A DNA stretch of 64,000 nucleotides from Dictyostelium discoideum (taxonomy: Eukaryota): assembly GCA_000004695.1 (NCBI GenBank), contig CM000153.2, positions 3,232,001 to 3,296,000 of the forward strand, written 5' to 3'. Positions within the stretch are counted from its first letter, which is position 1, and each line of letters begins with the position of its first letter. The notes below the pieces were generated by a model. That model saw nothing but the letters and a program-made list of their open reading frames with translations. It was not told the DNA's origin and did no database searches. Positions 7,087 through 64,000 of this stretch are shown piece by piece. Made by a program: the position numbers and the translations under genes.

Positions 7087-7174
<88 letters not shown>

Positions 7175-39862: not shown

Positions 39863-40183
39863 TTAATCAAATTGAGTTGTACAATTTATCATTGATTTAA
39901 TTTCAGGTGATAATTTAGATTTATTATATGATGGTGATAAAGATAAATGAATAACAGATGTTGGTATATTATCAATAGATAAATCTTGAGAAAAATCTTT
40001 TGAAAATGTGATTGAAGTTACAGAATTTGGGAATGTATTTGGAAGTATTTTTTGATTGAATGAATTTTTAAATTTTATAGTTGAAATTCCGTATGGAAGT
40101 GCTCCAGCTTCAATAATTGAATTAAATTCTGACCCAAATATTAAAATTCTAAGACAACTTTTTTTATTCTGATCGTCATTAGT

Positions 40184-40220
<37 letters not shown>

Positions 40221-42196
40221 AGATTAAAATTTGATAGTTGCTGATTAAATGAATCTGAAAATTTTAATTCATAAACTGATGATGGTATTGAACTTTTATC
40301 TAATTTTTTATTAAAATTTGAACCTAAATCTAAAAAAGTTAAACTATTTGGTAAAATTCCATTGGGTAGAGGATGGTTATATTCTTTTGATAGTTTTAAT
40401 GTTGTCACACCAAATGGAATAGAACCTTTCAATAAAGGATGATTAAATGTTTGACCAAGTTGTAAATAAGTACAAGTTGAAGGAATAACACCGGGTAATA
40501 ACACTTGATTAAAACATTTACCAAAATCAATTCTTTTCAATGATGAATTTAATGGAAATGAATTTAAATCTAATTCTCTATTAAAATGAAAACCAAATTT
40601 TAAAGATTTTAAAGATTTTAAATTTAAAAAACTCTTTGAAATTAATTGATTAAATTTAAAACCACAATATAATGATTCAAGATTATCAGGTAGTCCATTT
40701 TCTTCAATGATTTGATTAAATGTTGAACCGAATTCAATTAAAGTTACATTTTTAGGGAAAGTATCAACTTTTATTGATTTATTACCATTATTAAATTTTT
40801 GACCAAATATAATTGATTTTAATGATATTGGTAATATTGAAATTAAACCTTCTTCTTTTTTTATATCATTCTTAAATTGAATTAAATATTGATCGAATGA
40901 AATACCAAATTCAATATGTTCAACAGTTTGAGGAATACTATTATAATATAAAGTTTGATTAAATGATTCACCAAATGTAATTGATTTTAATGATAAAGGT
41001 AAAATTGAGGGTAGAATAAGTCGATTAAATGATTTACCAAAACTAATTGAATTTAATGTTATTAATGAACTTAAAATAGTAGAATAATTTAAAGGTTGGT
41101 TCCAATCATCACCAAAAATTAAAACTTGTAATGATGTTGGTAGTGTAGATTTCTCAATTGGATAATTAAATTTATTTGATAAACGTAATATCTTTAATTC
41201 TTGTGGTAGTAAATTTAATGGTATTGGATGATTCCAATCACAACCTAAATCTAATTCTGTTAACGATTCACTTAATGAGTATGGATTTAATGGTTTATTA
41301 AAATTTAAACCCATTTTTAAAGTTAAAAGATTTGGACATAAACATTGTAATTGGGAATCATCAATCGGTTGATTAAAATTTCTACCAAATTGAAGATATT
41401 CTAAATCCTCTGGAAGATTTATTAATTCACTATTAAATTCATTACCAAATATAATCCTTTTTACATTTACTGGCCACTCAATTAAATGTAATGGTTGATT
41501 AAATTTAAAATTGAATATCATTGATGTTAAACTTGTAGGAAATTGGTCACTTTTGAATGGTTCATTAAAAAATGGACCAAATTCAATGGTTTCAATAAAA
41601 GAGTTTCTTAAAACTTTTACACTATGTCCTGATAAAATTTCATTTGAATTTATGAATATCCTTTTAAGAGTGATTGGTATTGAACCAATTTGAAAATTTT
41701 CTAAACCAATATCTGTATTTAATGTTAATTTAGTTAGTGATTCACCTAATGCTCCTTTTTCAACCATTGATTTAAATTTACCACCAATTTGTAATGTTAA
41801 TACTTGTGATGGTATTATACCCTTTATTAATGTACTTGTTGAATCAATAATATAAATAGAGGTTAACCATTCCCTATATTCATAATTTAATAATGATTCA
41901 ACCGTAAATTCTCTCTTTTCATTAAAAACTTTTTCATATAAAACAAGATTTTCTAAAATTGTATATTTTAAATAATTATTTCTCCAAATTTTAAAAAATA
42001 AAAAACTATTATCAATTTCATCTTCTTTATTTAAAAAAAATTTTTTTTTTTTAATTTTATTTCTATTTTTATTAATATTATAATTATTATTATTTGAATT
42101 ATTATTATTATTACTATTAAAACCTGGATTATTTAAAGGAATAAAGGTATTTTTTTCAATTGGTTTTTTTTTATAAATTTTACAAAAAAAAAACAT
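39863..42196 (-). CDS. FNIP-repeat-containing protein, 777 aa, single exon.
   Basis: More than 15 tandem about 22-aa units carry the FNIP signature. Examples are LKFGFHFNRELDLNSFPLNSSLKRIDFGKCFNQVL, LQFGRNFNQPIDDS, LKMGLNFNKPL and FGESFNQTL. There is also an internal poly-Asp tract (DDDDDDDDDDDE) and an N-terminal poly-N region. Confidence 0.8.
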
Positions 42197-44240: not shown

Positions 44241-45200
44241 ATAATAAAAAAAATAAAAATAAAATAAATAAAAAAAAGGTAATAACTATTTAATTAAATT
44301 ATTTATTCTGTCCTCTCATTTATCTTTTTTTTTAAAAAATAAAATTAGTAAACGAAAATAAAAAATCAATTTATTCCCTATTTGTTCATCAATATATATT
44401 TATATAAAATTTATTCCCTACTTGTTCTCCAAAATAAAAAAACAATTACAAAAAATGAATAATTAAATTCCTAAAATTTTTGGTTGAATATTCGAGTTTT
44501 ACGATTTCCCGAGGATTTAATATTAAAAAAAAAAAACAATTCATGACCAGCCCTAATCATAAAAAAACCACTAAAACATGCAAAGATTGGAAAAAAAAAA
44601 AAATAAAAATAAAAAAAAAAAACAAAATTAAAATAAATAAATAAAAGACACTTTCATTATAATTATAATTTTATTTTATTTTTTTTTATTTTGTTTTTTA
44701 ATTTTAATTTTTAGATATTGATAAAAACACAAAAGAAAAAAAAAAAAAATATTTTCGTTTTTATTTTCTTTTATTTTTTTTTTTAGTATTATTTAAAAAA
44801 AAAAAAAAAAATAATTTGTTTTATTTTTTTAATTTTTTTTTTTATTTTTGTTTTTTTTTTTCATTTTTTATTTATTTTTTTTTATTCACTATCTATTATG
44901 AATAGCAGAAATTATTCGATTGAAACCTCTTCAAATAAAATAATATACTTTTTTTTATTTTTTTTTTATTTAATTATTTTTTTTTTTAATTTCAAAAAAT
45001 AAAATATCCTCTCGTTGTTCTTCAAAATAAAAAATAAAATATAAAAAAAATAAATAAAAAAAATAATAATAATAAATAAAAAAATAAAAACTTTATTTAA
45101 TTTTATTTAATTTTTTTTTTTTTTTTTTTTTTCAACCAAAAACTAAATTTGTTTTTTATATTAAGACTGACTTAAATTGAGATTATTTTTATGGAAATAA

Positions 45201-45828
45201 TTATTCAGTTGGATAAATTTCAAAATATTCAATGGCATACTTATGATGAATGATTTATTTTTAAATTAGTACAACTTTTTTTAATCAATGTAAAAATAGT
45301 GAATAATATAATTATTATAACTTACTTTTCTAAGTTCTTCACGTGTAATACATTTGTCATCATCAGAATCCACATCTTCAAACATTGAGTTGGCCAAGAC
45401 TTTAGCTTGAGCTTCATTTGAACCACAAGTAACGAAAAATTGTCTGGCCTCATCCCAAGTAATTTTATTATCTTTATTTGAATCAGCCTATAAAATTTTA
45501 TTTATTTTTTTATTTTTAAAAATATTAAATTTCAATTACTATGTTTTTATGGGAAAGATTAATATTTATATATTTAATATATATATATTACATTAAAAAT
45601 AGTATCAACGAATTTTTTTAAACAATCTTCAGCTTTAATAATATAATCTACAAGTAATGCAGCTTTAACTTCATTAACCGAAAGTTTTCCATCTTTGTCA
45701 TGATCAAATAGTTCAAATAATGAATTGGTTGCCAAAGTTGGGTTTGGGTATTTGCATTTCTTGTACATGTCATTAATTTCTTTCTTTGAAAATTGGTTAT
45801 CACCATTTTTATCAAATGATTTAATCAT
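45201..45828 (-). CDS. EF-hand calcium-binding protein, calmodulin-like. Exons 45828..45592, 45487..45326, 45239..45201.
   Basis: The EF loops are [36 protein letters not shown] and [14 protein letters not shown]. Donors are AAT|GTAATA and AAA|GTAAGT. Acceptors are ttttatag and catcataag. Exon lengths 237 and 162 are in frame. The short last exon, [12 protein letters not shown], is the least certain part. Confidence 0.55.
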
Positions 45829-46322
45829 TTCATTCTTTAATTTAAAAATATAAAATAAATTTTTTTTTTTTTTTTTTTTTTTTTTAAACGGTTCTTATAT
45901 TTTTAAGAACCCACACCAAAAATAAAAAATATTATAATTCCCATTTTTTTTTTTTTTATTTAAATTATTTTTTCCAAATTATATTCATTTTCTAATTTTT
46001 TACCCATTTAAAACAGTTTTCAAATAAGGTAAGAGTGTTTAAACTTTTTTTTTTTTTTATTTTTTTTTTTTTTATTTTTTTTATTTCCTTATATTGATTT
46101 TGTTTTTTTAAATTTAATTATTATTTTTTTTACAAATTGATTTTTTTTATTATTTTATTTATAATTATGTTGAATTTATGATTTTATATAATTTTATAAT
46201 AACAATCTTAACTTCAACACTTTAAATCTAAGCACAAAACCCAAAGTTAGAACTCCAGCTACCTAACAGTTATATATATATTAAAAAAAAAAATAATTAG
46301 AATTTAATTATTAATATAAATA

Positions 46323-46733
46323 TTATATAGATATATTATATTTTTTGATCAAAAAAAAAATAATAATAATAGTAATAATAATAATAATAATAAAATATAT
46401 GATACATACTAAAATCTCTTTTGAACTTATTACTCTTAAAAATACAGATACTAAATATTGAACTCTATTTGAATTTTCTAAATTCTCTTCCACTATTGGT
46501 TTAAATCCTTTGATTTTAAATGCTAATAGTCTACCATCAAAATTTGGTTGTGCAACTGATGATTCCAATACAATATAAGGTATGTAAAATATTGTTGGCT
46601 CATCATTTTTAGTTTCTTCACCATTATAACTAAAAATTTCAAAGTTATCAACACTGATTCCATAAATTCTCAAAAATGCAAGACTTACAAAGTTATCAAC
46701 ACTATTTGTCATTAAAACTGAACTCAGTTGCAA
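46323..46733 (-). CDS. Low-confidence hypothetical ORF. It has a possible GTATGT donor after ..SSKEIL and a short hydrophobic terminal exon around 46264..46199.
   Basis: The 136-codon ORF has a protein-like middle (PTIFYIPYIVLESSVAQPNFDGRLLAFKIKGFKPIVEENLENSNRVQYLVSVFLRV). Its first 35 codons are read across two copies of the 23-bp tandem motif (SVDNFVSL / ISVDNFEIF). The true start is therefore doubtful. Confidence 0.25.
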   Translation of the reverse strand: MQLSSVLMTNSVDNFVSLAFLRIYGISVDNFEIFSYNGEETKNDEPTIFYIPYIVLESSVAQPNFDGRLLAFKIKGFKPIVEENLENSNRVQYLVSVFLRVISSKEILVCIIYFIIIIIITIIIIFFLIKKYNISI

Positions 46734-46908
46734 ATTTCATTTAACCAAAAACATACAAAGTTATCAACACTATTTGTCATTAAAACTGTACTGAGTTTGT
46801 TTCAAATTTCAATTTACAAAAGACATACAAAGTTATCAACACTATTTGCCCAATTTGTAAATTTAAGGGAAAGGGACACACAAAGTTATCAACACTATTT
46901 GTCCTTTG
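46686..46908. repeat. Four tandem copies, with a period of about 53-72 bp, of the conserved 23-bp motif ACAAAGTTATCAACACTATTTG(T/C)C. Its reverse complement, GTTGATAACTT, contains a GATA-type core TGATAA.
   Basis: Motif starts are at 46688, 46756, 46828 and 46881. Copies 1 and 2 share an about 60-bp extended unit (..cattaaaactg(a/t)act(c/g)agtt..). The array overlaps the 5' end of ORF 46323..46733 on the minus strand. Confidence 0.7.
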
Positions 46909-47051
46909 AAAAAAAAATTAATTTCTAAATTAAATAAAATAAAGTTAAAGTTTTCATTTAAAGTTTAAATTTTTTATTTTTTTATTTTTATTTACATTAT
47001 TTATTTATACAATTATATTTTTATTTTTATTTATACAATTTTATTTTTATT

Positions 47052-47333
47052 TTACAAGTAGATAGTTGAATATTCATCGTCATCGTAATAAAGGTCAGAA
47101 TCATATGTTGATTCAACACTTGACAAACTATTTATAGAATCTGATAGAGATTGTATTGTTGTTTTAAATGATAAATTATCCTTTCTTAATAATTCCATTT
47201 CTAATTTTAATTTTTTAATTTCTTGAAAAATTTTATCCTCTTGTTTTTCATTATTTTCTTTCATTGAATCAATTTCTTTATTAATAGAATGGAAATCATT
47301 TTTTAAAGATGTGATTACTTCTTTTAATGACAT
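47052..47333 (-). CDS. Possible small coiled-coil protein of 93 aa. Hypothetical.
   Basis: The ORF from ATG 47333 encodes MSLKEVITSLKNDFHSINKEIDSMKENNEKQEDKIFQEIKKLKLEMELLRKDNLSFKTTIQSLSDSINSLSSVESTYDSDLYYDDDEYSTIYL*. This is a heptad-like, charged and non-repetitive composition. It is flanked by (AAT)n and (ATTT)n repeats. There is no homology call. Confidence 0.3.
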   Translation of the reverse strand: MSLKEVITSLKNDFHSINKEIDSMKENNEKQEDKIFQEIKKLKLEMELLRKDNLSFKTTIQSLSDSINSLSSVESTYDSDLYYDDDEYSTIYL

Positions 47334-47355
47334 TATTATTATTATTATAATTATA

Positions 47356-47454
<99 letters not shown>

Positions 47455-47502
47455 GTATAATTTTTTTTATTTATTTATTTTTATTTATTTATTTATTTTT
47501 TT

Positions 47503-47533
<31 letters not shown>

Positions 47534-47816
47534 CAAATTTTAAAATAATAATACAACATGTAACTTTTTTAAGAGTTATTTTTATTTTACAAAATTATTG
47601 AAAAAAAAAAAAAAAACCAACAAAAAAAAAAATAAGAAAAAAAAATAAAATAATAATAAAATGAAATCACTGAATTGTTTCAAATTATTTTTAAAAAAAA
47701 CCCCTACGGTTTTTATTATAATCATTTTGATCAAAATTTTTTTTTTTTTTTTTTTTTTGGAAGTAAAAAACAATAATAATACAACAGAATTGATTTAAAA
47801 TAATCTCTTTTTAAAT

Positions 47817-49308
47817 TTAAAATTTATCAAGATTTTTAATTCTGCCACCCATTTGAATATCAACAGTGGAACCTTGAGGTCTTAATTCAATGTTATTTGT
47901 ATTTTTTTTTGAATTTCCATTCTTCTTCTTTTTAATTAAAACAATGGCAACAACAATAATTGCAATTAGTGCAAGACCACCTAGAATTGGACCAATGATA
48001 ACACCAATATTTGTTTTCTTTTTATTTTCAGAACCACAATCATCGCCATCATAATCTTCAACACATTGGCATTGACCAACTGTAGTATTACATAAACCAC
48101 CATTAAAACATGAAACTGAACAACTAACACCACTACAATCTATACCTTCATAACCTTGAGTGCATGAACATTCACCAACTGTTGTATTACATGAACCACC
48201 ATTTAAACATTGTGGAACTGTACAATCCTTTGTACCACAATTATCACCATAAAAGTCATTAATACATTGACATTGACCAACTGTTGTATTACATGAACCA
48301 CCATTTAAACATGAAACTGAACAACCAATACCACTACAATCTATACCTTCATAACCTTGAGTGCATGAACATTCACCAACTGTAGTATTACATGAACCAC
48401 CATTTAAACATTGTGGAACTGTACAATCCTTTGTATCACAATCATCACCATAAAAGCCATTTATGCATGAACATTCACCAACTGTTGTATTACATGAACC
48501 ACCATTTAAACATGAAACTGAACAACTAATACCACTGCAATCTACACCTTCATAACCTTGAGGACATGAACATTCACCAACTGTAGTATTACATGAACCA
48601 CTATTTAAACATGAAGCTGAACAACTAATACCACTGCAATCCGTACCTTCATAACCTTGAGCGCACGAACATTCACCAACTGTTGTATTACATGAACCAC
48701 CATTTAAACATTGTGGAACTGTACAATCTTTTAATTCACAATAATCACCATAATGATCATTTATACATTGGCAACCAGTGAGTGGATTACAAGTACCCCC
48801 ATTTAAACATTTTGTATCACAATTTGCATTTGGTTGACCAATGAATTTAATTGATTGTACTTGATTACCATATTTCATTAATATAGTTCTATTAAATAGC
48901 TGAGGTGACAATGAAACTGTTATTTTTGGTAAAACATCATTTGCAATTGATTTACTCTCATCACCAAATAATATTAATTCAATTCTAACTCTTGTATTAT
49001 TATTAAATGTTATTGAATATATTGAACTATCGAAACTAGGATCAATAATAAATTGATCTTCATTTGCTGGATTTTCAATTGTTAATGTAACAATTCTAAT
49101 TGCGCATTGTCCAACTTCTGAATTAATATTATTTTCAAATAATTTATAAATTGAGTTTGACATTGGATTTGGTTGAAATAATTTACTAATTATTGAAATT
49201 GAACCAATCGAAGTTTGACCATATATTGTATAAATATCTAAATATGAACCTGTTACTAATATAGATGCTGTCTGATAGAATAGAATTATTTAAAAGTTAA
49301 TAATAATG

Positions 49309-49391
<83 letters not shown>

Positions 49392-50948
49392 TGATTTAAT
49401 ATAATATTACTTACAATATCATCAATACCATCAGAGTTATAATCACCAATATCAATAGCCGCAGCATAGCCATTAATTGACATTTTTGAACAATCACCAA
49501 CTTGATCTTTTAAATAAATTGGATTTGAAGCATAATTTTTATTATTACCATACAAAATGGTGAATGGGATGTCAGTGTTACCACTGAATAAAAAATCTGC
49601 AAATCCATCATTATTTATATCCCCCAATCTAGGAGAAAAAGCCCAGCTATAGATGTTGCCAACAACTGCTATAACCAAACCATCCGATGGATTTAGATTT
49701 ATACTTAATGTTGTTGTTGGTGGATATTCTGTTTTACCCAAACCAAAAAAGCTATATAGTCACCCCCCGAAGTAAGTCTTGTAAGAATCTAAAATTATTT
49801 AATAAAATGTAAAAATAAGTATAATAACAATAAAGAATAATAAAGAATAAGAATAATCAAAAAATAATAAAGAATAAATTACACCAAAATCATTTAGTCC
49901 ATCATTATTAAAATCTCCAAAAGCATTTGGATGAACATTATTATTTGTTGTGCAACCTAAAAAGCTGAAACTGGTACCTTTGACACCATCATAAACTGGG
50001 ATATATGGTGAGGTAAAAGGGCCTCTACTACCATAAATAATATCGATTGCTATCTGTCCCCTATTTATCATTATATCACCAATCCCATCATTATTCATAT
50101 CATAAGGATAAGCCGCATATGAATTGAAATTATTAATTAAAAAACCATTACTCCCATTTAATGTTGAAGGGTCAAATTCAAACTGTGAATTAACTTGAAA
50201 TTTACCACCGTTTATACCAAATATCATATATGAAATTGGTGTTCCTGAAGTTGCATAAGTTCCTATACTTGCAGAGACCTAAAAAAAAAAAAAAAAAAAA
50301 AATATGTGTTAATACCCATGTGAATACCCCTTTTAAAAACAAAATAAAAAAATAAAAAAAATCTGTACCTACAAATAAATCTTTAATTGAGTCACCATTG
50401 AAATCAATGATTGATCTTACAAACCCAAATGCAATATTAGAGGACGAAACGTGAGAAATATAGAAACCATTATTACCATTCACTGTCGAAAAAGTAGAAG
50501 GTGATATAATTTGATCAGTACCATAGATAACACAAAGTTTTCCTGGTATAATATGTAAAAAAAGAGCAATATCGTCAAACCCATCATTATTTATATCACC
50601 AACAGCTATATTATTCATTCGAACAGTAGCATTTAAAAAAATAAAACCATTTGAACCGTTGATCTTTGATATGTCTGTTTGAAAATTAAAATTACTTGCT
50701 AATGGCCCATAAAATACATATAGTCCTTCTGAATTTATAGCATATATCAAATCATCATTACCATCACCGTTCAAGTCTCCATGTGCAATTGAAATTAAAC
50801 TTCTGCCTTCTGTTATTAAAAACCCATTTATTGAATTAATTTGAGAAAATGATGTTGGAAAAATTGAAATTACAACATTGAAATTATAATTTAAAATATA
50901 AAATAAAAATAAAATATAAAAAAAGTTTACCTTATATTTTTCTGTCAT
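47817..50948 (-). CDS. Type I membrane adhesion-like protein with an N-terminal FG-GAP (integrin-alpha-like beta-propeller) repeat region, 8 tandem tenascin-type EGF-like repeats, a TM helix and a short cytoplasmic tail. About 4 exons: 50948..50373, 50278..~49885, ~49751..49415, 49271..47817.
   Basis: FG-GAP/Ca-binding loops recur: GDLNGDGNDDLIYA, GDINNDGFDDIAL, DFNGDSIKDLFVG, DMNNDGIGDIMI, GDFNNDGLNDFG, GDINNDGFADFLF and DYNSDGIDDI. These are followed by 8 copies of CxNGGSCNTTVGECSCxQGYEGxDCSGISCSxSCLN, then IGVIIGPILGGLALIAIIVVAIVLI (TM) and KKKKNGNSKKN... Donors are TTT|GTAGGT and ATT|GTAAGT. Acceptors are tttttttttag and ctattctatcag. The exon 2/3 junction only fits in frame with the non-canonical G|GTGTAA donor and the ctatatag acceptor at 49751, so it is uncertain. 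Confidence 0.7.
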
Positions 50949-51530
50949 TTTTTGTTAAAAAGGTAACTTTTTTTTCTGATTTTGAATTTTATCGAAATGT
51001 ATTAAATGCTTTTTTTTTTTTTTTTTTTTAAAAAAAATAAGGTCCGTTTTCTATTTTTTACACAAACGACGGTTTTTTTTTTTTTTGGCGAAAAAGATAT
51101 TTTTAAAAAATAAAATCTTTTATTTTGATTGAATTTTAAAATAATCACATGATAATTTCTTTAAATTTTAATATTTAAAAAAAAAAAAAAAATAAAAAAA
51201 AACAAAACTTTTTAAAATAATCATTTTAATTTTAAAACAAAAAAAAAAAAATTATATATAACTTTTGAAAATAAAAAAATAATTTTTTTTTTAATAAAAC
51301 CAATTCAAAACATTATTTAAATTAAACCAAGATAAAAAATTTTTAAAATAGATTTCAAATTTTTATAAAATAATATCCAACAATTTTTGACATTCGATCG
51401 TTTGCCAGATTTTCAAATAATATTTTTTTTTTTTTTATTTTTTTTTTTTTATTTGTTTTCTAAAAAATTGGAAAATATCTTCATCCATAAAATTTGTTAT
51501 TTGATTAAATTTAATTACAACTTTATTTAT

Positions 51531-51911
51531 TTATTTACAAATTTTCTTTTTTAATTTTTTTTTTTTTTTTTTTTTATTGATAAAACCTTTACATTTCTTT
51601 AAATAAAAACCATCATCTTCTTCAATTTCTTCAGCCCATTCAAAGATTGCCTCTTCAGAGATAACATCATTTTCATCACAAAAATCTTGAATTTTAAAGA
51701 TAAGATCTACCATACTATCTTCTCTTGAGAATTTAACCAACAATAAAACTGGTAAAATACTTGTTAAACAATCTAAACCATCTCTATCATAAGCGAATTT
51801 CAAACCATTGATTTCTAATTGAATATTCTCTAAAGGTAATTTCTCTATAATACCACGTCTAATTGTATCACCAACTTCACGATGAAATTTAACTGAATCA
51901 GGTTCAATTGG

Positions 51912-52007
<96 letters not shown>

Positions 52008-52217
52008 GTTGTTGTTGTTATTGTTATTGTTACAATTTGAACCTGTCATACAAATTACTTGAACACCTGGAAGATCATGCCATCTTGATGATTGAATATA
52101 TTCTTTAATTTGTGATGCATGTGCACAACAAAATACAAATATTTGTTGTACTCCTGATGCTGCTAAAAATTCTAATGTATAATCTAATAATGGTATATTA
52201 ACTAATGGTAATAATGT
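51531..52217 (-). CDS. eIF2B-epsilon-like mini-ORF. An N-terminal nucleotidyl-transferase-fold fragment of about 55 aa is joined through a roughly 40-residue poly-Asn tract directly to a C-terminal W2 (eIF4G/eIF5/eIF2Be) domain. The catalytic core and LbH regions are absent. It may be a pseudogene, an internally deleted paralogue, or a collapsed assembly.
   Basis: From the acceptor tttaaatag at 52219/18 the open frame reads [62 protein letters not shown]-(N)[49 protein letters not shown]..[24 protein letters not shown]. Both ends align to human EIF2B5 ([40 protein letters not shown]..SKW and [43 protein letters not shown]). No upstream coding exon could be found in the 190 bp before the divergent 52415 gene. 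Confidence 0.45.
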
Positions 52218-52315
52218 CTATTTAAAAAAAAAAAATAATATATTAGCATTTTAATCTTGAATTTCACCCCTCTAATTGGGTTGAGTGTTTTTGGATTTTA
52301 ATTTGAATTCCCGAG

Positions 52316-52385
<70 letters not shown>

Positions 52386-52414
52386 GCACACACAAACACT
52401 CTCATAAATGGAGA

Positions 52415-53075
52415 ATGATTCAAAACGCATTTTTATATTTAAAGATAATCATTCTGATAGTAATAACAAATAATGTAAACTCACAATTAATTGATATTTA
52501 TTTCAGTAATAGTTATGATGATTTAAATGGTAATGGCACCATATCAAACCCATATCAAAATTTATGTTTACTTAATCAAATTTTAAATTCAAATAATAAT
52601 AATAATAATAATAACGATAATATAAATAGTTCAATAATAATAATAAATATTGATTATGGTGATTACAATTTAAATTGTTCATCATTTTTAATAATAAATA
52701 ACTTTAATAATATTTCATTCATACCTTATAAATCAAATAATAATAATAATAATAATGAAATTGTAAATTTAAATAATATAACCACATTAAAGATACTTAA
52801 TTCAAATTTAGGATTTGATGGGTTAATAACAATAATAACGAATCAAATAGAGATTTCATATAGTAGAATCATATTCAACAATGGATCAAAACTTTATTTC
52901 AACATAGAAAGATATGAACATTCAACACACTTTCAATGCTCAAATATTACATTTTCAAATTCAACATTTCTTTTAAAAAGAGATGAAAACTACCTTGTAT
53001 CAGAATCTAGTTCATTCGAATTTTTAGATTCATCTTTAGAAAATATATCTTTAATATTTAATAATAACCTATATT

Positions 53076-53153
<78 letters not shown>

Positions 53154-56100
53154 GTATTGGTAATAGTAGTAGAATTAGTAGTGGTAGTAGTAGTAGTAGT
53201 TATTTTTTATCAATGTTTAATTGTAATGCAACATTGATTTATTTCAGGATGAATGGATTTGGAAATGTTTTAATTAATAATTCATTATTAAATGATATAT
53301 CAATTAGAATAGAAGGTAGTTTTATAGTTAATATTAATAGTTCAGATATTTATGCAACTTCATTAGATCCACTTTTCATGGTGGCGAATATGGATATAGA
53401 AAGATCACTTTTAAATATAATAAATTCAAATATTTACTATTTAAATGATTCTGAGTATCCTTTAGCAATTATAGTTAAAAATAGTTTACTAAATATAAGT
53501 GGTTGTAATATAAATGGAAACTTTAAAAGAATTTATCCTCAAGCATTAATAAATGTTGCTGGTACTCCTTCATCATCATCATCAAATGATAGTAGTAGTG
53601 GTAGTAGTAGTAGTAGTAGTTGTATAGATAATGAAGCTTTATTAATTTTAGAGAATTCAAAGATTTCAAATTTTAATTCACCAAATAAATTTATTTTTTC
53701 AATTTGTTCAACTATTTTTATAAATAATATTACATTTTATTCAAATTCATACTCAACATTTTTATATATTAATAGTAGTAGTATTGTTAATTTAGATAAT
53801 ATTATAATGAAATGTGATGATATGAATAGATTTGAATATTTATTTTTAGCACTACCATCATCGTCATCATCATCATCATCAAATATAACAATTAATAATG
53901 TTTATATGAGTTGTGTTGGTATGTTTGAATTTGAAAATTGTAGAATTGAAATTTCAAATTTTAGTTTAGAATCATTTTCAAAACCTTCAACTATTAGGCT
54001 AAGTCATTCAAGTGAATTAATAATTAGGAATGGTGTTTTTATTTCAAGTATATTCAAAATTAAATCTTTTATGTTTTATTTAGAGCAGAATAGTAGGTTG
54101 GTCATTATAAATTGTCAATTTATAGATAGCACTACCAATATTATTTTCTCAAGAAATTCAGAAACAGTTTTACAATATTCAAATTTTTCAAATATAATAC
54201 CATATGGTGGTGGCAGTGGTGGTGATACATTTAATTCAAATTCAATTTTCTACTTTTCAAAAAGTTTATTACAAATTGAAAATTGTAATTTTAATCAAAC
54301 TCAAACTTTATCATCCCTATTTTATATGGAATTTTCAGAGAATGTAATTATAAAATCAACAAGATTTGAAAGAGTTGGTGATACTATTTTAAAAAGTTAC
54401 TTTTCAAACAACAATATTATCATTGATGATATTTATGTAGTGAATTGTAGTACTACACAGAGTGAGTTATTCTTTTTAACGTTTAATGAAAATGTTGTAA
54501 TTGGAAATTCAACTTTTAAAAATAATCATGGTATTGGTTATACTTTATTTACTATTAATGGTTGTTTACATTTTGAAATTAGTAAAACAATGATTTCAGA
54601 TAACTCTTTCTCATCAATTTTTAAAGAATCAAATTCAAATGCCATTCTACTAAATTCAATAATCTCAAATGGTAATACAGTTGATGATTTTTATAAATCT
54701 TCAAATTGTTCTTCCCTTTCAATTGATACTTTTAATTTTACAAATAATTATGTTAATTCAATATTCACAATAAATAAAATCACATCCAAAATTCAACTTT
54801 CAAATATTATAATTACAAATAATTATTTCACTAAAATAATTACAAAATTTAATCAATCTATAGTTGAAATTAATAATTTAACATTTATAGACAACATATT
54901 AATTGCACCTCAAAAATATGATTTGGATGGTGGTGGTGGTAGTAGTGGAGGTGGTGGTGGTGGTGGTGGATTATTCTTTGAAAATTGTCAAGTTATTTCT
55001 AAAGGTTTACAAATTTTAAATAATGAAATTTCAGTTAATTTAATTAATTTAAATGATTCTATATTATTAATTTCAGATGGTTTATTTGAAAATAATCAAA
55101 TTTCATCAAATTTTATTCATTCTGATTTTTCAACTGTTGCTTTATTTAATACAAAGGTATTGCATAATCAAGGTGGTGATGGTGGTGGTTCAACTTTATT
55201 TGTTATTCATAATTCAAATATTAATATAAGTGATTGTGAATTCTCTTTTAATAATCTTTATAAAAATGGTATGGGTTCAATTATTAATTTTGATAAATAT
55301 TTAAATAAATTTACTTATTTTCAAATTGAAAATACTTTATTTTCTTTCAATATTGCTAAATTTGGTCAATTATACTTTTCAGGTTATCCAAATGATCAAG
55401 ATGCATTTACAAATAGTAAAAATACATTTTCAAATAATACATTAATTTCAAATCATGCATCTTCACAAGGTGGTGCTATCTTTACAGAAAATTTCATTTT
55501 CTCTTTAAATATTTCAAATATTTTAAATTCAAATCATTTCGATAATAATACTTCATTATGTGGTGATAATTTCTCTTCAAGTATGTATTATTGTTTTTAT
55601 TTTTATTTTTATTTTTATTTTTAATAATTCTAATTTTTTTTTATTTTTTTTTATTAGGTTTAAAAGAAATTATTTTCATAGAAACTAATGGTACATTTTT
55701 AGTAAATGGAGTTGGAACTATTATCAATTATAATGCAGTGGATTTTTATAATAATGTATTCACCACATTATCTTCACCAATTCAAATTAGTATTACAAGT
55801 TTATCAAATAATGAAACACTGGTATTCACTGAAATGATTATTGGTGGTAAAGGAAGTTTTTTACATACTTTTATAGGACCACTTTATGAAAGATTTAAAA
55901 TTGAATTAAATTCCATACCATACTATTCAAATGTTTATTTAACACTTGGTGGATGTTTACCATTTCAATATATGAATAATTTAACATGTGAATATTGTCC
56001 AATAGGTTCATCATATAGTAATTCAATAGGTCAATGTTTTAAATGTAATCCTAATGCAGTGACATGTGTTGGTTCATTTGTAAATGTAAATACTGGATAT

Positions 56101-57240
56101 TATATGATCGATAATGAAATCTCAATGGTTGAACGATGTGCAAACGATATGTGTCTCTCAAATAATCAATGTCAATTTAAATATAGTTCAGGAGATTTAT
56201 GTTTCAGTTGTTTAGATCCAGACTCATCAACACCAACATTCATAGCAGCTAAACATGGAATTAATTGTTGTTCCCAATTTAAAGTATGGTTAATTGTACC
56301 ATTATTATTATTATATTTAGTTTCAGCATTAGTTCTCTCAATAATCAAATTAAATTTATTCACAACAATAATTGGACCAATAATAGTATTCCTTCAAATT
56401 AATTCAGTAGTTTTCTTTTCTTATAATGGTATTTACATTTTAGCATTCTTTAGAGTATCATTAGATATTTTAGATGGAATTTGTATTTTCAAAGGATTAA
56501 ATCATGGAGATAAAACATTAATTATATTATTAATTATAATAATAATGTTTTTAATTTCTTCAAGTGATTGGCTTCCTTTATGGTTATTTAGAAAATTAAA
56601 TTCAAATTTTAAATTATACAATTATTTAAAAAGAAATTTAAAAAAGAATAGAAATTTAAAGAAATCATCATCAACAACTCAACTTAATTATTTTATTAGA
56701 TCAAGATGGCAATTATTTCAAATCTTTATTATTCCATTAATATTCAATTCATTTACATTGATAATACCAAAGAAAATTAAAGATCAAACATTATTATTAG
56801 TAGATTTTTCAATTTTATTTGGATCATGGCAGAGTATAATTCAAATTTTCATTTCAGTTTTAGTAATAATATCAGCAATGGTATTTTTAATATTAAAATA
56901 TCAATTTTACAGCAAGGGTAAACTAAAGTTGTGGAGTTTCATTATAATTTTAAGATCAGTTTTATTTTCAATTCTATCAATTACATCAATTTTTAGCGAT
57001 AATGAATTTTATATGCCATCGATTATTCTAATTCAAATAGTCTATTCAAGTATTTACTTGTATTTGAAACCTTTAAAAGAAAAAATTGATAATAGTAATT
57101 TTATAAATTTAATTCAAATAATTATCTTTCTTTTCGCAGATTCAAGATTATTCCAACCAATTTCTCCCCATTATCTTGGCTTAATTTTAACTATTTTAAT
57201 TATTATTTTAAATTTATTTATAATAATAAAAACCTTTTAA
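52415..57240 (+). CDS. Giant membrane protein, copy 1, about 1580 aa. It has a signal peptide, about 900 aa of parallel beta-helix (PbH1 / chlamydial Pmp-like) repeats, a Gly-rich hinge, a Cys-rich module and about 10 TM helices. Exons 52415..55580 and 55658..57240.
   Basis: MIQNAFLYLKIIILIVITNNVNSQ is a signal peptide. The body has repeated N-x-x-x-x-x-S/N-x-I-x-F beta-helix rungs (..NVYMSCVGMFEFENCRIEISNFSLES.., ..VIINCQFIDSTTNIIFSRNSETVLQYSNFSNI..). The hinge is GGGGSSGGGGGGGG. The Cys-rich module is CEYCPIGSSYSNSIGQCFKCNPNAVTCVGS..CANDMCLSNNQCQFKYSSGDLCFSCLDPDSS..INCC. A multi-TM block follows (WLIVPLLLLYLVSALVLSII.. and more). The intron at 55581..55657 has a TCAA|GTATGT donor and a ttattag acceptor, with phase 1 consistent. 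Confidence 0.8.
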
Positions 57241-57260
57241 ATTGTATTTGGCGGTTGCAG

Positions 57261-57296
<36 letters not shown>

Positions 57297-57381
57297 CAAA
57301 ATCTTTTTTTACTTTTTTTTTTTTTTTAATAAAAATCTTATTTTAAAAATAGTACTTTTAAAACAAATAAAAAGAAAGAAA

Positions 57382-57413
<32 letters not shown>

Positions 57414-57562
57414 TACGTGATCGCTGATTGGCTGGGCAAAAAATTAAAAAAAATCAAAATAAAAATGAAAATAAAAATGAAAATTCTCAAAAAAAAAAAA
57501 AAAAAAAATTGAAAACATAAACATTTTTATTCAAACCAAATTATTAGTTACATAAATGGAGA

Positions 57563-58256
57563 ATGATACATAATTTATATTTAAAGATAATCATTCTTTT
57601 ATTAATAATAAATAATAATGTAAACTCACAAATAATTGATATTTATTTCAGTAATAGTTATGGTGATTTAAATGGTAATGGCACCATATCAAACCCATAT
57701 CAAAATTTATGTTTACTTAATCAAATTTTAAATTCAAATAATAATAATAATAACGATAATAACGATAATAAAAATAATTCAATAATAATAATAAATATTG
57801 ATTATGGTGATTACAATTTAAATTGTTCATCATTTTTAATAATAAATAACTTTAATAATATTTCATTCATACCTTATAATTCAAATAATAATAATAATAA
57901 TAATAATGGAATTGTAAATTTAAATAATTTAACCACATTAAAGATACTTAATTCAAATGTTAAATTCGATGGGTTAATTAAAATCACAATAACAATTATA
58001 GAAAATGAAACGGAAATTATAAATAGTGATATATTATTGAATAATGGGGTAACTCTTTATTTTATCAAAAATTACCAACTAACCAACAGTGAATTTCAAT
58101 GTTCAAGTATTAAATTTTCAAATTCAAAATTTATTTCAAATTGGTCACAAAATGATGTATCTATTTATTTTAATTCAGATTCCAGCTTATTTGAATTTCA
58201 AAATTCTTTAGTAGAAAATGTATTTTTAAAATTTAATAATATAAAAAATTGTAGTA

Positions 58257-58287
<31 letters not shown>

Positions 58288-61200
58288 GAATGAAATTAAT
58301 TTTTTAACATTTAATAATAGTAATATCAAAGATTGTTATTTTGCAACTAGTGGTTTAAATTCAATTTTTAATAATTCTTTATTAGATGGTTTAAAAATGA
58401 ATATTGGAGCAAGTAGTATAGTAACAATTCTCAACTCTAAATTATATGCAAAACCAGATTCTATTTTAGGAACTTTTCTAATTACCAATGTTGATCAAAG
58501 TACAAAACCATCAGTTTTAAATATAGTTAATTCAAATATTTACCATTTACAAGATTCTCGTTATTCATTAATTATGCTATTTATAAATTCATTTGTAAAT
58601 ATTAGTGGTTGTACAATTGAAGGTAGGGAAACAATAGTTCAAACACCAATTGTATTAATTGGAATACCAAATAGTAGTGGTGGTGGTGGTAATAATAATA
58701 ATCAAGTGATACTAGTTTTAGAGAATTCAAAGATTTCAAATTTAATTTCACCAAAAGATTTTATCAATTCATTTAGTTCTACCGTTATTATAAATAATGT
58801 TCAATTTTATTCAAATTCATTTTCAACAATTATTTCATCAAGAGGGTCAACTTCTTTTAATCTTTATAATATCATTATTACATGTGATCAAAGGAATATA
58901 TTTACATCAATTATTAAAATGCCATCATCGGAAAATGATTTATATTCAAATTTGACATCTTTTATAGATTTTAATAATGTTTATATGGGTTGTGTTGGTG
59001 GATTTGAATTTCAAAATTCAAAAATCCAAATTTCAAATTTTAGATTAGAATCATCTTCAAAACCTTCAATATTTAGTTTAATTTTAAATAGTGAATTAAC
59101 AATTATTAATGCCACTTTTATTTCAAGTATATTTGATCAATCTCCTTCAATTTTTTATATTAATTCAAGTAAATTAACAGTTTTACAAAGTGAATTCAAA
59201 GATAGTACCAACTCTATTCTATCTTTATATGGTGGTTCAACAGCAACCTTTCAATCAACCAATTTTTCAAGTATAATAACCTATGAAAGAGTTCCAATTT
59301 TTAATAGTAGTTCAAGTTCATTATTTATTGAAAATTGTAGTTTTTTTGAAATTCAAACTTCAGTTTCATCATTATTCAATTGTTTTGATTGTGATAATTT
59401 AACTATAAAGAATTCAATATTTGAAAGAGTTGGTGATATCATTTTAGATTGTTTCAATACAAAACTAATAATTATTGATTCTATAAATGTTTCAAATTGT
59501 AGTTCACAAACAGGTTTATTCTATTTTTCAAATAATAGAAATGGTAGTAGTATTATCACAAATTCTTCATTTATAAATAATCATGGTATCGGTGTTACAC
59601 TATTTAATATATTTGAATCAAATTTTGAAATTAGTTCAACAGATTTAATAGATAACACATTTTTATCAATATTTGATGAATCATTTTCAAATGTAACAAT
59701 TGAACGCATTTACGTTACAGGTACAACTGGAATTTTTTATTCTGCTTTAAATTCAATATCGATTTTAGTTGATGGTTTAGATTTTAAAGATAATTATGTC
59801 ACCTCTGTATTTACTATTAATCAAGCTAATAAAATTGAATTTTCAAATATAGCAATTTATAAAAACTATTTCATAGATGGTGTAAATGTTATGATGATTA
59901 GTCTTTGTACATTGGAAATCAATAATTTTAATTTTATGGAAAATGTTTTAATTGCACCACCTAAATCAGAACAAACTAGTGGTGGCGGTAGTGGTGGTAG
60001 TGGTAGTGTTGGTGGAGGATTAATTTTTCAAAATTCTAATGTCATTTTCAATGATTTACAAATTTTAAAAAATGAAATTTCAGTTAATTTATTTAATTGT
60101 ATTAACAATACATTATTATCAATTACAGGTGGTTTATTTCAAAATAATAAAGTTTCATCAAGTTTTATTTTTTCTGAAATTTCAGTAATCAATTTAATTA
60201 GAACACATCTATTGCATAATCAAGGTGATAGTTCAACTTTATTAATGTTGTATGCTTCAAACATCAATGTGAATTATTGTGAATTCTCTTTTAATAATAT
60301 TTATCAAAATGGTAGTGGCTCAATATTAAATTTTAAAAGAAACTTGGAAACACACGAGTATTTAGGAAACTTTCAAATTGAAAATACTTTATTCTCTTTA
60401 AATATTGCTAAATTTGGTCAATTATACTTTTCAGGTTATCCAAATGATCAAGATGCATTTACAAATAGCAAAAATACATTTTCAAATAATACACTAATTT
60501 CAAATCATGCATCTTCACAAGGTGGTGCTATCTTTACAGAAAATTTCATTTTCTCTTTAAATATTTCAAATATTTTAAATTCAAATCATTTCGATAATAA
60601 TACTTCATTATGTGGTGATAATTTCTCTTCAAGTATGTATTATTATTATTTTATTTTTGTTCATTTTTTGGCCAATCTAACTTTTTTTTTATTTTTTTTA
60701 TTAGGTTTAAAAGAAATTATTTTCATAGAAACTAATGATACATTTTTAGTAAATGGAGTTGGAACTATTATCAATTATAACGCAGTGGATTTTTATAATA
60801 ATACATTAACAACATTATCTTCACCAATTCAAATTAGTATTACACGTTTATCAAATAATGAAATTCAAACTTATTCAGAAGCAATTTTAAGTGGTAAAGG
60901 AAGTTTTTTACATACTTTTATAGGACCACTTTATGAAAGATTTAAAATTGAATTGTATCTCAAACCATATTATTCAAATGTTTATTTAACACTTGGTAAA
61001 TGTTTACCATTTCAATATATGAATAATTTAACATGTGAATATTGTCCAATAGGTTCATCATATAGTAATTCAATAGGTCAATGTTTAAAATGTAATCCTA
61101 ATGCAGTGACATGTGTTGGTTCATTTGTAAATGTAAATACTGGATATTATATGATCGATAATGAAATTTCAATGGTTGAACGATGTGCAAACGATATGTG

Positions 61201-62374
61201 TCTTTCAAATAATCAATGTCAATTTAAATATAGTTCAGGAGATTTATGTTTCAGTTGTTTAGATCCAGACTCATCAACACCAACATTCATAGCAGCTAAA
61301 CATGGAATTAATTGCTGTTCCCAATTTAAAGAATGGTTAATTGTACCATTATTATTATTATATTTAGTTTCAGCATTAGTTCTCTCAATAATTAAATTAA
61401 ATTTATTCACAGAAACAACAATAATTGGACCAATAATAGTATTCCTTCAAATTAATTCAGTAGTTTTCTTTTCTTATAATGGTATTTACATTTTATCATT
61501 CTTTAGAGTATCATTAGATATTTTAGATGGAATTTGTATTTTCAAAGGATTAAATCATGGAAATAAAACATTAATTACACTATCAATAATAATAATAATG
61601 TTTTTAATTTCTTCAAGTGATTGGCTCCCTTTATGGTTATTTAGAAAATTAAATTCAAATTTTAAGTTATACAATTATTTAAAAAGAAATTTAAAAAAGT
61701 ATAGAAATTTAAAGAAATCATCAACAACTCAGTTTAATTACTTTATTAGATCAAGATGGCAATTATTTCAAATCTTTATTATACCATTAATATTCAATTC
61801 ATTTACATTGATAATACCAAAGAAAATTAAAGATCAAACATTATTATTAGTAGATTTTTCAATTTTATTTGGATCATGGCAGAGTATAATTCAAATTTTC
61901 ATTTCAGTTTTAATATTATCATTGGTAGTTTTAGTTATAATAATAAAACATTTCTATTACAGCAACAAAAAAAATCAATGGAATATTAATCTTAAGCAAA
62001 ATGGAAAGACATTATCTTTTAAAAGAATTTTATTAGTAGTTAAAACAATTTGTTTCATCTTTCTTTTAGGTTCATGGGATTTTATTATTATAAGATCATT
62101 TTTATTTTCAATTTTATCAATAGCTTTGATATTTAGCGATGGTAATTTATTTTTACCATCAATTATTTTAATACAAATCATTTATTCAATTATTCAATTT
62201 TTGTTGAATCCTTTCAAAAAAAAGGTTCATAATCTTATTAATTTAATCCAACTTATAATCTTTTTTTTTGCAGACTCAAGTTTATTCCACCCAATTACTC
62301 CTTTCGCTTTGGGATTAATGCTAACTATTTTAATTATTATTTCCCCTTTTTTTATAGCAATTGGAAATAAATAA
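57563..62374 (+). CDS. Giant beta-helix / multi-TM membrane protein, copy 2. It is a tandem paralogue of 52415..57240. Exons 57563..60632 and 60705..62374.
   Basis: It has the same architecture and a near-identical N-terminus (MIHNLYLKIIILLLIINNNVNSQIIDIYFSNSYGDLNGNGTISNPYQNLCLLNQILNSNNNNN). The equivalent intron is TCAA|GTATGT ... ttattag. In the ORF track it stays open because it lacks a stop, but the same donor and acceptor are conserved. The C-terminal TM block is about 98% identical to copy 1 at the nucleotide level over about 1.5 kb, while the central beta-helix region is diverged. Confidence 0.8.
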
Positions 62375-62413
62375 AAAAAAGTAATAAAAGAAATAAATAT
62401 TTTTTAAAAAGTT

Positions 62414-62475
<62 letters not shown>

Positions 62476-62536
62476 TTGGATGTTGCTTTTTTGCACATTT
62501 TTTAAATTTTTTTATCCCTTTGAATAAGCTAAGAGT

Positions 62537-63008
62537 TTATTTTATAAAACATAATTCACTAATTTCTAAATAATTTATATGGGTTTGATTTTGTTTTAAT
62601 CCTATTATATTAGCATCGCTATTTATATATTGATAAATTTTGCCTTGAAATTTTGGTTTTTCATGATAATGGCTTAAACAAGAATCAGTTTTAGGTTTTT
62701 TATAATCATAGAAATATAATTTTTCAAGTGATTTTGGAAGATTTGAAAAATCGATTTTATCTTTTTTAAATTTTAAATAAATATCTTTATAAGATAATTT
62801 TAGTTTTTTTAAAGTTTGTGGTAATTTATTTGTTTCTATTAAATCTTTAAATGTATTAAATGCTGTTTTTATTTCAAAAACATTTCTATCAGAATTTAAA
62901 AATGAAAGAGATGTTAATGATTTTGGTAAAAATAAAAGATCATTTTCAAAAGTCCATTGTATATTTAATTTAATTAAATTATCTGGAAATATTGATTTTA
63001 ATAATGAA

Positions 63009-63060
<52 letters not shown>

Positions 63061-63634
63061 TTTGAGATTTATATTGATTTAACTCATTTTTTAAAATGAA
63101 TCTATTAAAAATCAACAATGAAGATATGTAATAAAATGATTTATAATATTTAAAAAAATTTTCAACATAAATATTTAATTTAAATAATGATGGTGGAAAG
63201 AAGTTTATAATATTAATGTTTTTCTTTATCCAACAATAATTTGTTTGAATGATAAGAGTATGAAGTCCTTGGGGTAATGAATTTGAGCAGAATTTGAAAA
63301 TAATACCCCAACTTTTAATTTTAATTGCTGATATTTTTAATACTTTTAAACATTTTGGTAAATAATTTTTTTTTATTGTAAATTTGTCTCTTAAAATATT
63401 GTGAAAGTGAAGATATGTAATGTTTGTGTTATAAAAAAAATTAGAATTAAAATATCTTGATAATGGTGTAACTATTATTAGTTTCTCTAGTGATTTTGGA
63501 AATGAATTTTTTTTAATTATAACTGGTTGAATATCATAAATGTCTGGGGAACCAATTTCTAATTCTTTTAATTTTGGAGGAATAAAATTTTTTTTGAAAA
63601 TTGGGAAAAAACTACAACCAGTATTAAAACTCAA
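62537..63634 (-). CDS. Repeat protein with a periodic (L/F/I)P(K/Q)(S/T/C/G)L(K/T/E)xL(K/S/I)(F/L/I) motif. It is LRR/FNIP-like but lacks the FNQ core. Hypothetical.
   Basis: A 365-codon ORF from ATG 63634. It has recurring units LPKSLTSLSF, LPQTLKKLKL, LPKSLEKLYF, FPKSLEKLII, LPKCLKVLKI, LPQGLHTLII, FPPSLFKLNI, FPDNLIKLNI and IPPKLKELEI at about 22-28 aa spacing, plus a poly-N tract. Confidence 0.55.
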
Positions 63635-63759
63635 TTGAATTTTTTCGATTGTATTATTCTTTTTAAATATTTTTAATTTTCTATTTTTAAAATATTCTTT
63701 TTTTAAAAAAAAAAAAAAATATTAATAAAAATAAAAAACACCAAATAATTTATAAAAAT

Positions 63760-64000
63760 TTATTTACCACTCCCATTATTTCCAATATTAATAAAAAATG
63801 ACAATGATTTTGTAGATTTTGGTAAATATTTAATTAATTTTAAATTTGCTGTATTTGGTAAAATTATGGTTTCAATTTTATCAGATTTAATTAAAAAATT
63901 TTTAATTATTGTATTTTTTAAATCTAAAATATGTATTGATCTGATATTAGTAAGAGATAATGATATTATATTGGCTTTTATTATTAATTTAAAAGCATAA
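63760..64000 (-). CDS. 3' end of a tandem paralogue of the same LRR/FNIP-like repeat family. The gene extends beyond the window end.
   Basis: The minus-strand open frame reads ..ILDLKNTIIKNFLIKSDKIETIILPNTANLKLIKYLPKSTKSLSFFINIGNNGSGK*, with the stop at 63762..63760. No in-frame splice to the downstream ORF could be constructed, so it is called as a separate gene. Confidence 0.45.
   Translation of the reverse strand, partial: YAFKLIIKANIISLSLTNIRSIHILDLKNTIIKNFLIKSDKIETIILPNTANLKLIKYLPKSTKSLSFFINIGNNGSGK

Follow-up and report, generated by a model that had tools for sequence, protein, structure and literature searches.

Recurrent gene conversion in a tandem array of predicted beta-helix, multi-pass membrane protein genes of Dictyostelium discoideum

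In a 64,000-nucleotide stretch of Dictyostelium discoideum DNA (contig CM000153.2, hereafter the window), two adjacent genes on the plus strand, here named c1 (52415-57240) and c2 (57563-62374), share near-identical blocks of sequence. We demonstrated that these blocks are gene-conversion tracts, and that conversion has been recurrent among three tandem copies and parallel in at least two species. A third copy, c3, lies just past the window, so that c1 and c2 represent two-thirds of a three-gene array. Non-reciprocal copying homogenises three segments within each species. One is the first ~0.4 kb, which encodes the signal peptide and an N-terminal cap; another comprises the final beta-helix rungs; and the third contains the Cys-rich module and transmembrane (TM) helices TM1-TM5. 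The ectodomain core and TM6-TM9 evolve independently between copies. Each gene encodes a predicted glycoprotein whose parts are, in order, a signal peptide, a predicted right-handed beta-helix of ~1000 residues, an immunoglobulin (Ig)-like sandwich, a module with 12 Cys, and a membrane domain of about nine TM helices. The best explanation of the whole, which we regard as likely, is a three-gene array with conversion tracts that encodes surface receptors or adhesins on a shared module.

Results

Gene models of the tandem pair

An earlier reading of the window from its sequence alone (the initial annotation) had described two adjacent same-strand genes with a common architecture, and we confirmed its coordinates for c1 and c2, both on the plus strand. 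The coding sequence of c1 joins 52415-55580 to 55658-57240 (1582 amino acids (aa) after splicing), and that of c2 joins 57563-60632 to 60705-62374 (1579 aa). The same spliced lengths were found in independent gene models on the ACTFIT assembly, a public D. discoideum chromosome (L003) that is 99.7% identical to window positions 47536-64000, and the c2 exon-1 protein was identical to ACTFIT_005854 at 1023 of 1023 residues.

Exon 1 of c1 (52415-55580; an open reading frame of 1055 codons plus 1 base) encodes the signal peptide (52415-52486) and the predicted beta-helix ectodomain. It is followed by a GT..AG phase-1 intron of 77 nt (55581-55657; donor gtatgt at 55581) and by exon 2 (55658-57240), which contains the Ig-like sandwich (55660-55950), the Cys-rich module (55954-56274) and nine predicted TM helices (56284-57234). 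In c2, exon 1 (57563-60632) is likewise an open reading frame for a signal peptide and a predicted beta-helix ectodomain, and exon 2 (60705-62374) encodes the Ig-like domain, the Cys-rich module and the TM domain, including a 31-aa loop (~61972-62065) that is not in c1. The c2 intron (60633-60704; 72 nt, GT..AG) sits at the same phase-1 position as that of c1; because it is in frame and stop-free, the raw c2 open reading frame runs through it. The intron position was kept in all eight aligned orthologues and paralogs. The window itself is extremely AT-rich, with poly-Asn runs.

The conserved intron measured 72-86 nt in every copy but D. citrinum copy B, in which it is 297 nt long (L002 ~7170-7470) and made of a short tandem repeat. 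This repeat also matches a repeat array of the window near 47332-47531.

Identity between c1 and c2 is mosaic

Through MAFFT alignment of c1 with c2, we found that identity changes abruptly along the genes. The 5' homogenised tract (c1 52403-52807, c2 57551-57958) starts 12 nt upstream of the ATG, is 93.0% identical over 52415-52807 and breaks off sharply at 52808; upstream of it, the two promoters share low-complexity sequence only. The diverged ectodomain core follows (c1 52808-55318, c2 57959-60361), with 62.6% identity. Next comes 3' tract a (c1 55319-55592, c2 60371-60644), which takes in the donor site of the intron and, before it, the final Pmp-like rungs of the beta-helix; it is 98.5% identical, with 4 differences in 262 coding nt (55319-55580). 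Beyond the intron, c1 55658-55923 is 88.7% identical to c2, and the differences are dense in two patches, 55817-55843 and 55908-55923. In 3' tract b (c1 55924-56862, c2 60971-61912), which spans the Cys-rich module and TM1 to early TM5, identity rises to 96.8%, and in the diverged tail from the end of TM5 to TM9 (c1 56863-57240, c2 61913-62374) it is 56%, including an indel of ~93 nt. All these segments lie on the plus strand. The tract edges at 52808, 55318/55319 and 56862/56863 are abrupt, within a few bases, and the longest identical run between c1 and c2 was 150 nt, compared to a maximum of 81 nt in 2000 shuffles of the differences.

These results agree with the initial annotation in that a diverged central ectodomain and a diverged gene end were seen in the alignment, and uniform divergence was not; there are identity blocks with sharp edges. 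Its coordinates for the near-identical gene start and 3' block were essentially right, but the 3' block consists of two tracts, between which lie the intron and a portion of the Ig-like domain, and it ends inside TM5. The conserved "3' chassis" that it proposed holds for the Cys-rich module and TM1 to early TM5 and fails for the rest of the membrane domain, where TM6-TM9 have diverged. The "extra TM segments" that it assigned to the second copy turned out to be the 31-aa loop, which is also present in other paralogs and has been lost in c1, and its poly-Gly "hinge" is a run within the beta-helix region, ~200 residues before the end of that region, and not a domain border.

Homogenised tracts group by species, and the core and tail by orthology

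We compared the array with related loci from ACTFIW (L001: c1, c2 and part of c3), a D. discoideum lineage ~6% diverged from the window, from ACTFIT (L003: c1, c2 and c3), which is near-identical to the window, and from D. citrinum (L002: copies A, B and C). Synonymous divergence (dS) was calculated by NG86, and neighbour-joining trees with bootstrap were built for each segment. In the core and tail, c1 was 77-83% identical to D. citrinum A, c2 80-86% to B and c3 82-85% to C, and paralogs were 51-73% identical. Because the core and tail copies have species-to-species orthologues, the three-gene array predates the D. discoideum/D. citrinum split. The third copy shows the same mosaic: c3 is orthologous to D. 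citrinum copy C and is 95-100% identical within tract b. Over 55945-56690, copies of the same genome were 95-100% identical, and any discoideum/citrinum pairing gave 87-91%; the three D. citrinum copies were 98-100% identical to each other in the homogenised tracts.

The synonymous sites followed the same pattern. In tract b (55924-56862), dS was 0.06-0.10 between paralogs (0.061 for c1/c2) versus 0.26-0.30 between species, whatever the pairing, and in the 5' tract it was 0.046 between paralogs versus 0.26-0.30 to D. citrinum. In the centre, dS was 0.54-0.9 between paralogs (0.54 for c1/c2) versus 0.33-0.41 for orthologues, and in the tail it reached 0.63 between paralogs. The trees for the centre and tail grouped the copies by orthology with 96-100% bootstrap (100% for the core). 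In the tracts, grouping was by species (100%) and by genome (59-81%), and the switch fell exactly at the tract borders; tract a joined D. citrinum A, B and C at 100%, and tract b gave 100% for grouping by species and 74-81% for grouping by genome. The initial annotation had suggested gene conversion as the source of the identity blocks, and the switch of the trees at the borders, together with the low paralog dS, upholds it.

The tracts coincide with the segments that are most conserved across the whole family, and between-species dN/dS (dN, nonsynonymous divergence) was lower in the tract (~0.27) than in the ectodomain (~0.45-0.53), both values being below 1. Such a pattern could be expected if the blocks had stayed alike without any DNA exchange, through strong purifying selection acting on old duplicates in their signal/cap and membrane parts. 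Protein-level selection is excluded as the cause of the blocks, however, because synonymous sites are homogenised too; inside the tracts, moreover, the trees unite copies of one species and even of one genome, and each border is confined to a few bases. We therefore give selection alone hardly any weight. A single recent partial duplication or exon shuffling could also have produced chimeric genes without recurrent conversion, and two sequences of one genome cannot tell one event from many. This is very unlikely in view of the further genomes: homogenisation of the same tracts took place separately in D. citrinum and in two lineages of D. discoideum, it involves all three copies, and unconverted patches inside the tract still follow orthology.

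In principle, near-identical blocks of 1 kb can also mislead assemblers, so that the duplication might be a collapsed or falsely expanded repeat; nothing else was found that speaks for such an artefact. The initial annotation had named such an artefact among the findings that would refute it. The same arrangement and mosaic were present in two further independent assemblies, ACTFIW and ACTFIT, making three assemblies of two D. discoideum lineages, and D. citrinum carries the three-copy array; the diverged centres, moreover, are unique anchors for each copy. The probability of an assembly artefact is negligible. These results indicate that the near-identical blocks arose by recurrent conversion between tandem copies.

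The ectodomain is predicted to form a beta-helix

A signal peptide was present in both proteins, as the initial annotation had stated. Its further description of the ectodomain as beta-helix rungs of PbH1 or chlamydial Pmp type was supported in part. The Beta_helix model PF13229 (gathering threshold 25.9 bits) matched c1 and c2 below threshold and matched the D. citrinum orthologue at 34.4 bits, and 9 of 30 family members matched it at E<=1e-3, the best of them with 71 bits. Searching the PDB with a family profile, we found the beta-helix protein RbtA of Acinetobacter (9cdu; E 6e-6) over the last rungs, which bear N-x-F-x-x-N-x-A-x-x-GG motifs; when the N-terminal alignment was used as the profile, the PDB yielded no match. 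A Pfam scan of the full-length c1 and c2 proteins found nothing at E<=0.1. Hydrophobicity autocorrelation gave only weak peaks for rung periodicity, at lags 24-26 and 49-50, and was set aside as evidence.

The assignment to a particular repeat family did not hold. PbH1-type models had no match on c1 or c2, and Chlam_PMP (PF02415) had none on either up to E 10; each protein contains a single GGAI motif, and the C-terminus is a helical multi-pass domain. Three distant family members matched Chlam_PMP, sub-threshold only. Chlamydial Pmp autotransporters and RbtA use a right-handed beta-helix as an extended, surface-exposed binding scaffold, as is predicted for c1 and c2, and differ from them in that c1 and c2 lack an autotransporter barrel and a Chlam_PMP match and are anchored by a eukaryotic multi-pass domain. 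The ectodomain contains 31-35 N-glycosylation sequons, and the Ig-like sandwich that follows the predicted beta-helix is backed by Ig-like matches in structural searches.

The right-handed beta-helix is also the classic fold of pectate lyases and glycanases. Hence the proteins might be membrane-anchored enzymes that degrade or modify polysaccharides, with the beta-helix acting as a lyase or hydrolase on bacterial or matrix glycans, and faint PDB profile matches to pectinesterase and rhamnogalacturonan lyase (E 0.09-0.5) point in this direction. These matches are not significant, no catalytic Pfam family was matched in 30 members, the relatives in Allomyces bear a binding domain and not a catalytic one, and a conserved nine-helix module with polar motifs would be needless for such an enzyme. 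We consider an enzymatic role improbable.

The Cys-rich module and the membrane domain

We ran AF2 on the exon-2 protein with a 26-sequence alignment and obtained a model with pLDDT 83.5 and pTM 0.74; a 5-sequence alignment had given pLDDT 41. In the model the Cys-rich module is a stack of disulfide-rich hairpins, and the family alignment showed 12 nearly invariant Cys. The Cys-rich module of the initial annotation is therefore real, but its proposed GCC2_GCC3 identity is not supported: GCC2_GCC3/Ephrin_rec_like (PF07699) had no match on c1 or c2 and reached E 0.021 in 1 of 26 members. The module gave weak matches to DUF7630, DUF7631 and TNFR_ELAPOR1, and to EphA2 in the PDB (E 0.13).

The modelled helices occupy exon-2 residues 209-232, 238-264 (broken), 282-301, 339-365, 390-417, 424-442, 451-469, 478-498 and 503-525, and the model also contains a Lys/Arg-rich helix (304-336) and an extracellular hairpin (370-379). 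The membrane domain of roughly ten helices that had been read from the sequence was thus recovered as a multi-pass domain of about nine. Because the basic loops fall inside when the ectodomain is placed outside (the positive-inside pattern), we infer a topology of about nine TM helices in type-I orientation, with the N-terminus out and the C-terminus cytosolic. The best conserved motifs (FLQINSVVFFSY, RxSxDxLDGxC, PLxFN and DFSI) are polar and lie in or beside helices, which argues for the membrane module being more than a passive anchor. PDB profile and structural searches returned no solved structure that matches the TM domain.

A restricted family with a different ectodomain in Allomyces

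An exhaustive HMMER search of 1.84 billion representative proteins with the C-terminal profile found only 34 proteins. They span all major dictyostelid groups (Dictyostelium, Tieghemostelium, Acytostelium, Heterostelium, Cavenderia, Polysphondylium and Synstelium), include the AX4 paralogs DDB_G0272102, DDB_G0289049 and DDB_G0268930, and are all annotated as hypothetical or "transmembrane protein". At least seven large surface-type proteins of the family occur per genome. In addition to the dictyostelid proteins, the 34 include weaker matches from early-diverging fungi. The chytrid proteins have the same overall plan with clearer Pmp-like repeats and weak Chlam_PMP hits, and the Allomyces proteins carry an OpuAC-type solute-binding domain followed by the same Cys-rich/TM module (hmmsearch E 1.6e-8; hhalign probability 96%, E 2e-9, over 343 columns). 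The Allomyces fusion fits an interchangeable sensor on a constant membrane transducer. A further search, made with the TM region of the Allomyces proteins, found a single unannotated protein and was uninformative.

In this order of parts, a ligand-binding domain, a Cys-rich spacer and a multi-pass transducer, the proteins resemble class C G-protein-coupled receptors (GPCRs), the more so as Allomyces places the periplasmic-binding-protein-type OpuAC domain first. The likeness is architectural only; c1 and c2 have about nine helices and not seven. The 7tm_3 model had no match in 26 members, no GPCR was among the top structural matches, and NCD3G gave a faint match in one metagenomic fragment only (E 0.02).

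Alternatively, the nine-helix module might form a channel for ions, or a transporter, with a distant relationship to the fungal TRP-like Pkd2/Flc proteins, and be gated by the ectodomain. In favour of this, PF06011 (TRP) gave a weak match at one shared position in all four Allomyces relatives (14.7-18.4 bits, E 0.001-0.014), the helices contain conserved polar residues, and fungal Pkd2 has a similar topology, with the N-terminus out and nine helices. The Allomyces scores are below the threshold of 28.5 bits, however, and no dictyostelid or chytrid member matched PF06011, so that the similarity is a lead and not a result; we regard the channel or transporter as possible, though unlikely.

Divergence between lineages is not elevated in c1 and c2

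The initial annotation had proposed a polymorphic recognition family, possibly for allorecognition, and the comparison of three genomes did not support this. Relative to the ~6% diverged ACTFIW lineage, dS/dN were 0.088/0.022 for c1 and 0.063/0.020 for c2, similar to 0.070/0.029 for the neighbouring FNIP gene, and flanking DNA was equally diverged; the dN/dS of c1 and c2 was 0.25-0.32. Between the window and ACTFIT the ectodomains were identical, and the coding substitutions in c1 and c2 were confined to the last ~110 nt of c2.

The Tgr proteins are single-pass, carry IPT/TIG domains and show extreme allelic polymorphism (PMC11088635, PMC4448137). Like TgrB1/TgrC1, c1 and c2 are adjacent paralogous genes for Dictyostelium surface proteins with diverged ectodomains, and a role in allorecognition or kin recognition might be suggested by the strong ectodomain differences among the three paralogs (~63% nt identity) and by the higher between-species dN/dS of the ectodomain compared to the tract. 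In contrast to the Tgr genes, c1 and c2 lie head-to-tail and not as a divergent pair, encode about nine TM helices, and gave no IPT/TIG domain in Pfam scans. As their divergence between lineages is also not above background and an independent D. discoideum assembly has identical ectodomains, we think it very improbable that c1 and c2 belong to a polymorphic recognition family of this kind.

All 8 substitutions between the window and ACTFIT in 16.4 kb fall within a 170-nt stretch (62264-62431) that covers the last ~110 nt of c2 and its 3' untranslated region; they change 5 amino acids. Every other difference is a homopolymer-length indel. A micro-conversion patch was ruled out as the origin of this cluster, since no paralog or orthologue carries the window bases, and it probably reflects either private mutations or errors of sequencing in one of the sources.

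Neighbouring genes

The third copy, c3 (1555 aa; ACTFIT L003 17722-22568), lies past a minus-strand FNIP-repeat gene, ~1.1 kb beyond the window end. In both D. discoideum lineages this FNIP gene (62537-63634, minus strand; E 3.6e-13) separates c2 from c3. Between copies B and C of D. citrinum, the only gene is one of 131 aa on the minus strand, for which no Pfam match is recorded. On the upstream side, Pfam identified an FG-GAP/EGF gene (~47820-50948, minus strand), a small open reading frame with a weak W2-domain match (51531-52049) and another FNIP-repeat gene (39863-42196, minus strand; E 1e-99). The surface-type neighbours named in the initial annotation were therefore found, as the FG-GAP/EGF gene and the FNIP-repeat gene.

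A segment of ~7.8 kb (44513-52302), containing the FG-GAP/EGF gene and the small open reading frame, is absent at the ACTFIW junction (L001 ~9885-9900) and present in ACTFIT. It is a presence/absence polymorphism of a surface-type gene adjoining the array. ACTFIW, which is labelled D. discoideum, differs from window positions 34155-64000 at ~5-8% of nucleotides over all 30 kb compared, with dS of 0.06-0.09 in three genes. This is far above the divergence expected within the species, and for this reason the isolate behind ACTFIW may be mislabelled or belong to a cryptic lineage.

Discussion

Concerted evolution of tandem paralogs by partial gene conversion is an established general phenomenon, and the array shares its marks, namely tract-limited homogenisation, grouping by species inside the tracts and by orthology outside, and homogenised synonymous sites. 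In principle there is no difference; conversion between tandem paralogs is expected and ordinary in kind, and current views are not overturned. Particular to c1-c3 are a tract whose end falls at an indel within the membrane domain, and the parallel homogenisation of three copies in two species. A literature search on conversion between tandem genes of Dictyostelium brought up no relevant work. Purifying selection would keep the tract segments similar enough for homologous pairing, and conversion would then wipe out the remaining differences, which is likely to make the cycle self-reinforcing. Heteroduplex extension would be stopped by three barriers, namely the diverged core, the intron with its many indels, and the indel of 93 nt. 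Selection for diversity need not be invoked for the mosaic.

We infer that the c1-c3 proteins are probably cell-surface receptors or adhesins, because they combine a signal peptide with a sequon-rich ectodomain, because beta-helices serve as binding scaffolds in bacterial surface proteins, because Allomyces swaps the ectodomain for a ligand-binding domain, and because of the parallel with SadA. SadA of D. discoideum is a nine-TM substrate-adhesion receptor that acts at the cell surface in adhesion and phagocytosis, and has a cleaved signal peptide and a large, Cys-rich extracellular N-terminal domain of three tenascin-like EGF repeats (PMC2173991). It therefore shares with c1 and c2 the organism, the signal peptide, the large Cys-rich-bearing extracellular part and the nine predicted TM helices. 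Its EGF repeats stand in place of the predicted beta-helix, so this is an analogy of plan only, with no homology detected; judged from hit names, SadA is not one of the 30 proteins named among the hits of the exhaustive search with the C-terminal profile. On the receptor/adhesin reading, the three paralogous beta-helices would present different binding surfaces, most plausibly to glycans or particles such as prey bacteria or matrix, and all three would feed one shared Cys-rich/multi-pass module, which would serve as the anchor and probably also as a transducer or gate.

Several points weigh against the explanation as a whole. GC content at third codon positions was not raised in the tracts (0.08-0.12, compared to 0.10 in the centre and 0.17 in the tail), so the tracts lack the signature of GC-biased conversion, a common though not a necessary mark of the process. 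The intron within the tract region is only 74% identical between c1 and c2, and conversion across it is either older or blocked by indels. The c1 and c2 ectodomains are assigned to the beta-helix by profile evidence and predicted fold, and the Beta_helix scores on their sub-fragments, 23.3 bits for c1 (E 5.5e-5) and 18.8 bits for c2, are both sub-threshold. Literature searches on the family gene IDs found no expression, localisation or mutant data.

The locus offers a clean and quantifiable case of domain-limited concerted evolution, with three copies and the same tracts in two species, and could be used for studying the limits of conversion tracts in an extremely AT-rich genome. The part worth following is the uncharacterised protein family with its unclassified membrane module. 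To our knowledge, Dictyostelium has no integrins, and the surface receptors by which it would recognise substrates, prey or matrix are known in few cases. As the family is conserved in all Dictyostelia, and no Pfam model of its membrane module, solved homologue or literature was found, it is a reasonable candidate set for adhesion, phagocytosis or sensing screens. Tentatively, and with low confidence, the Cys-rich and nine-helix module may represent an undescribed family of receptors/transducers or gated channels in Amoebozoa and early-diverging fungi that accepts interchangeable ectodomains, with the array as a "variable ectodomain / constant transducer" set. If this were true, dictyostelids and chytrids would mount a beta-helix on the module and Allomyces an OpuAC-type solute-binding domain, and gene conversion, by keeping the signalling half identical, would let three different ligands feed into one downstream pathway.

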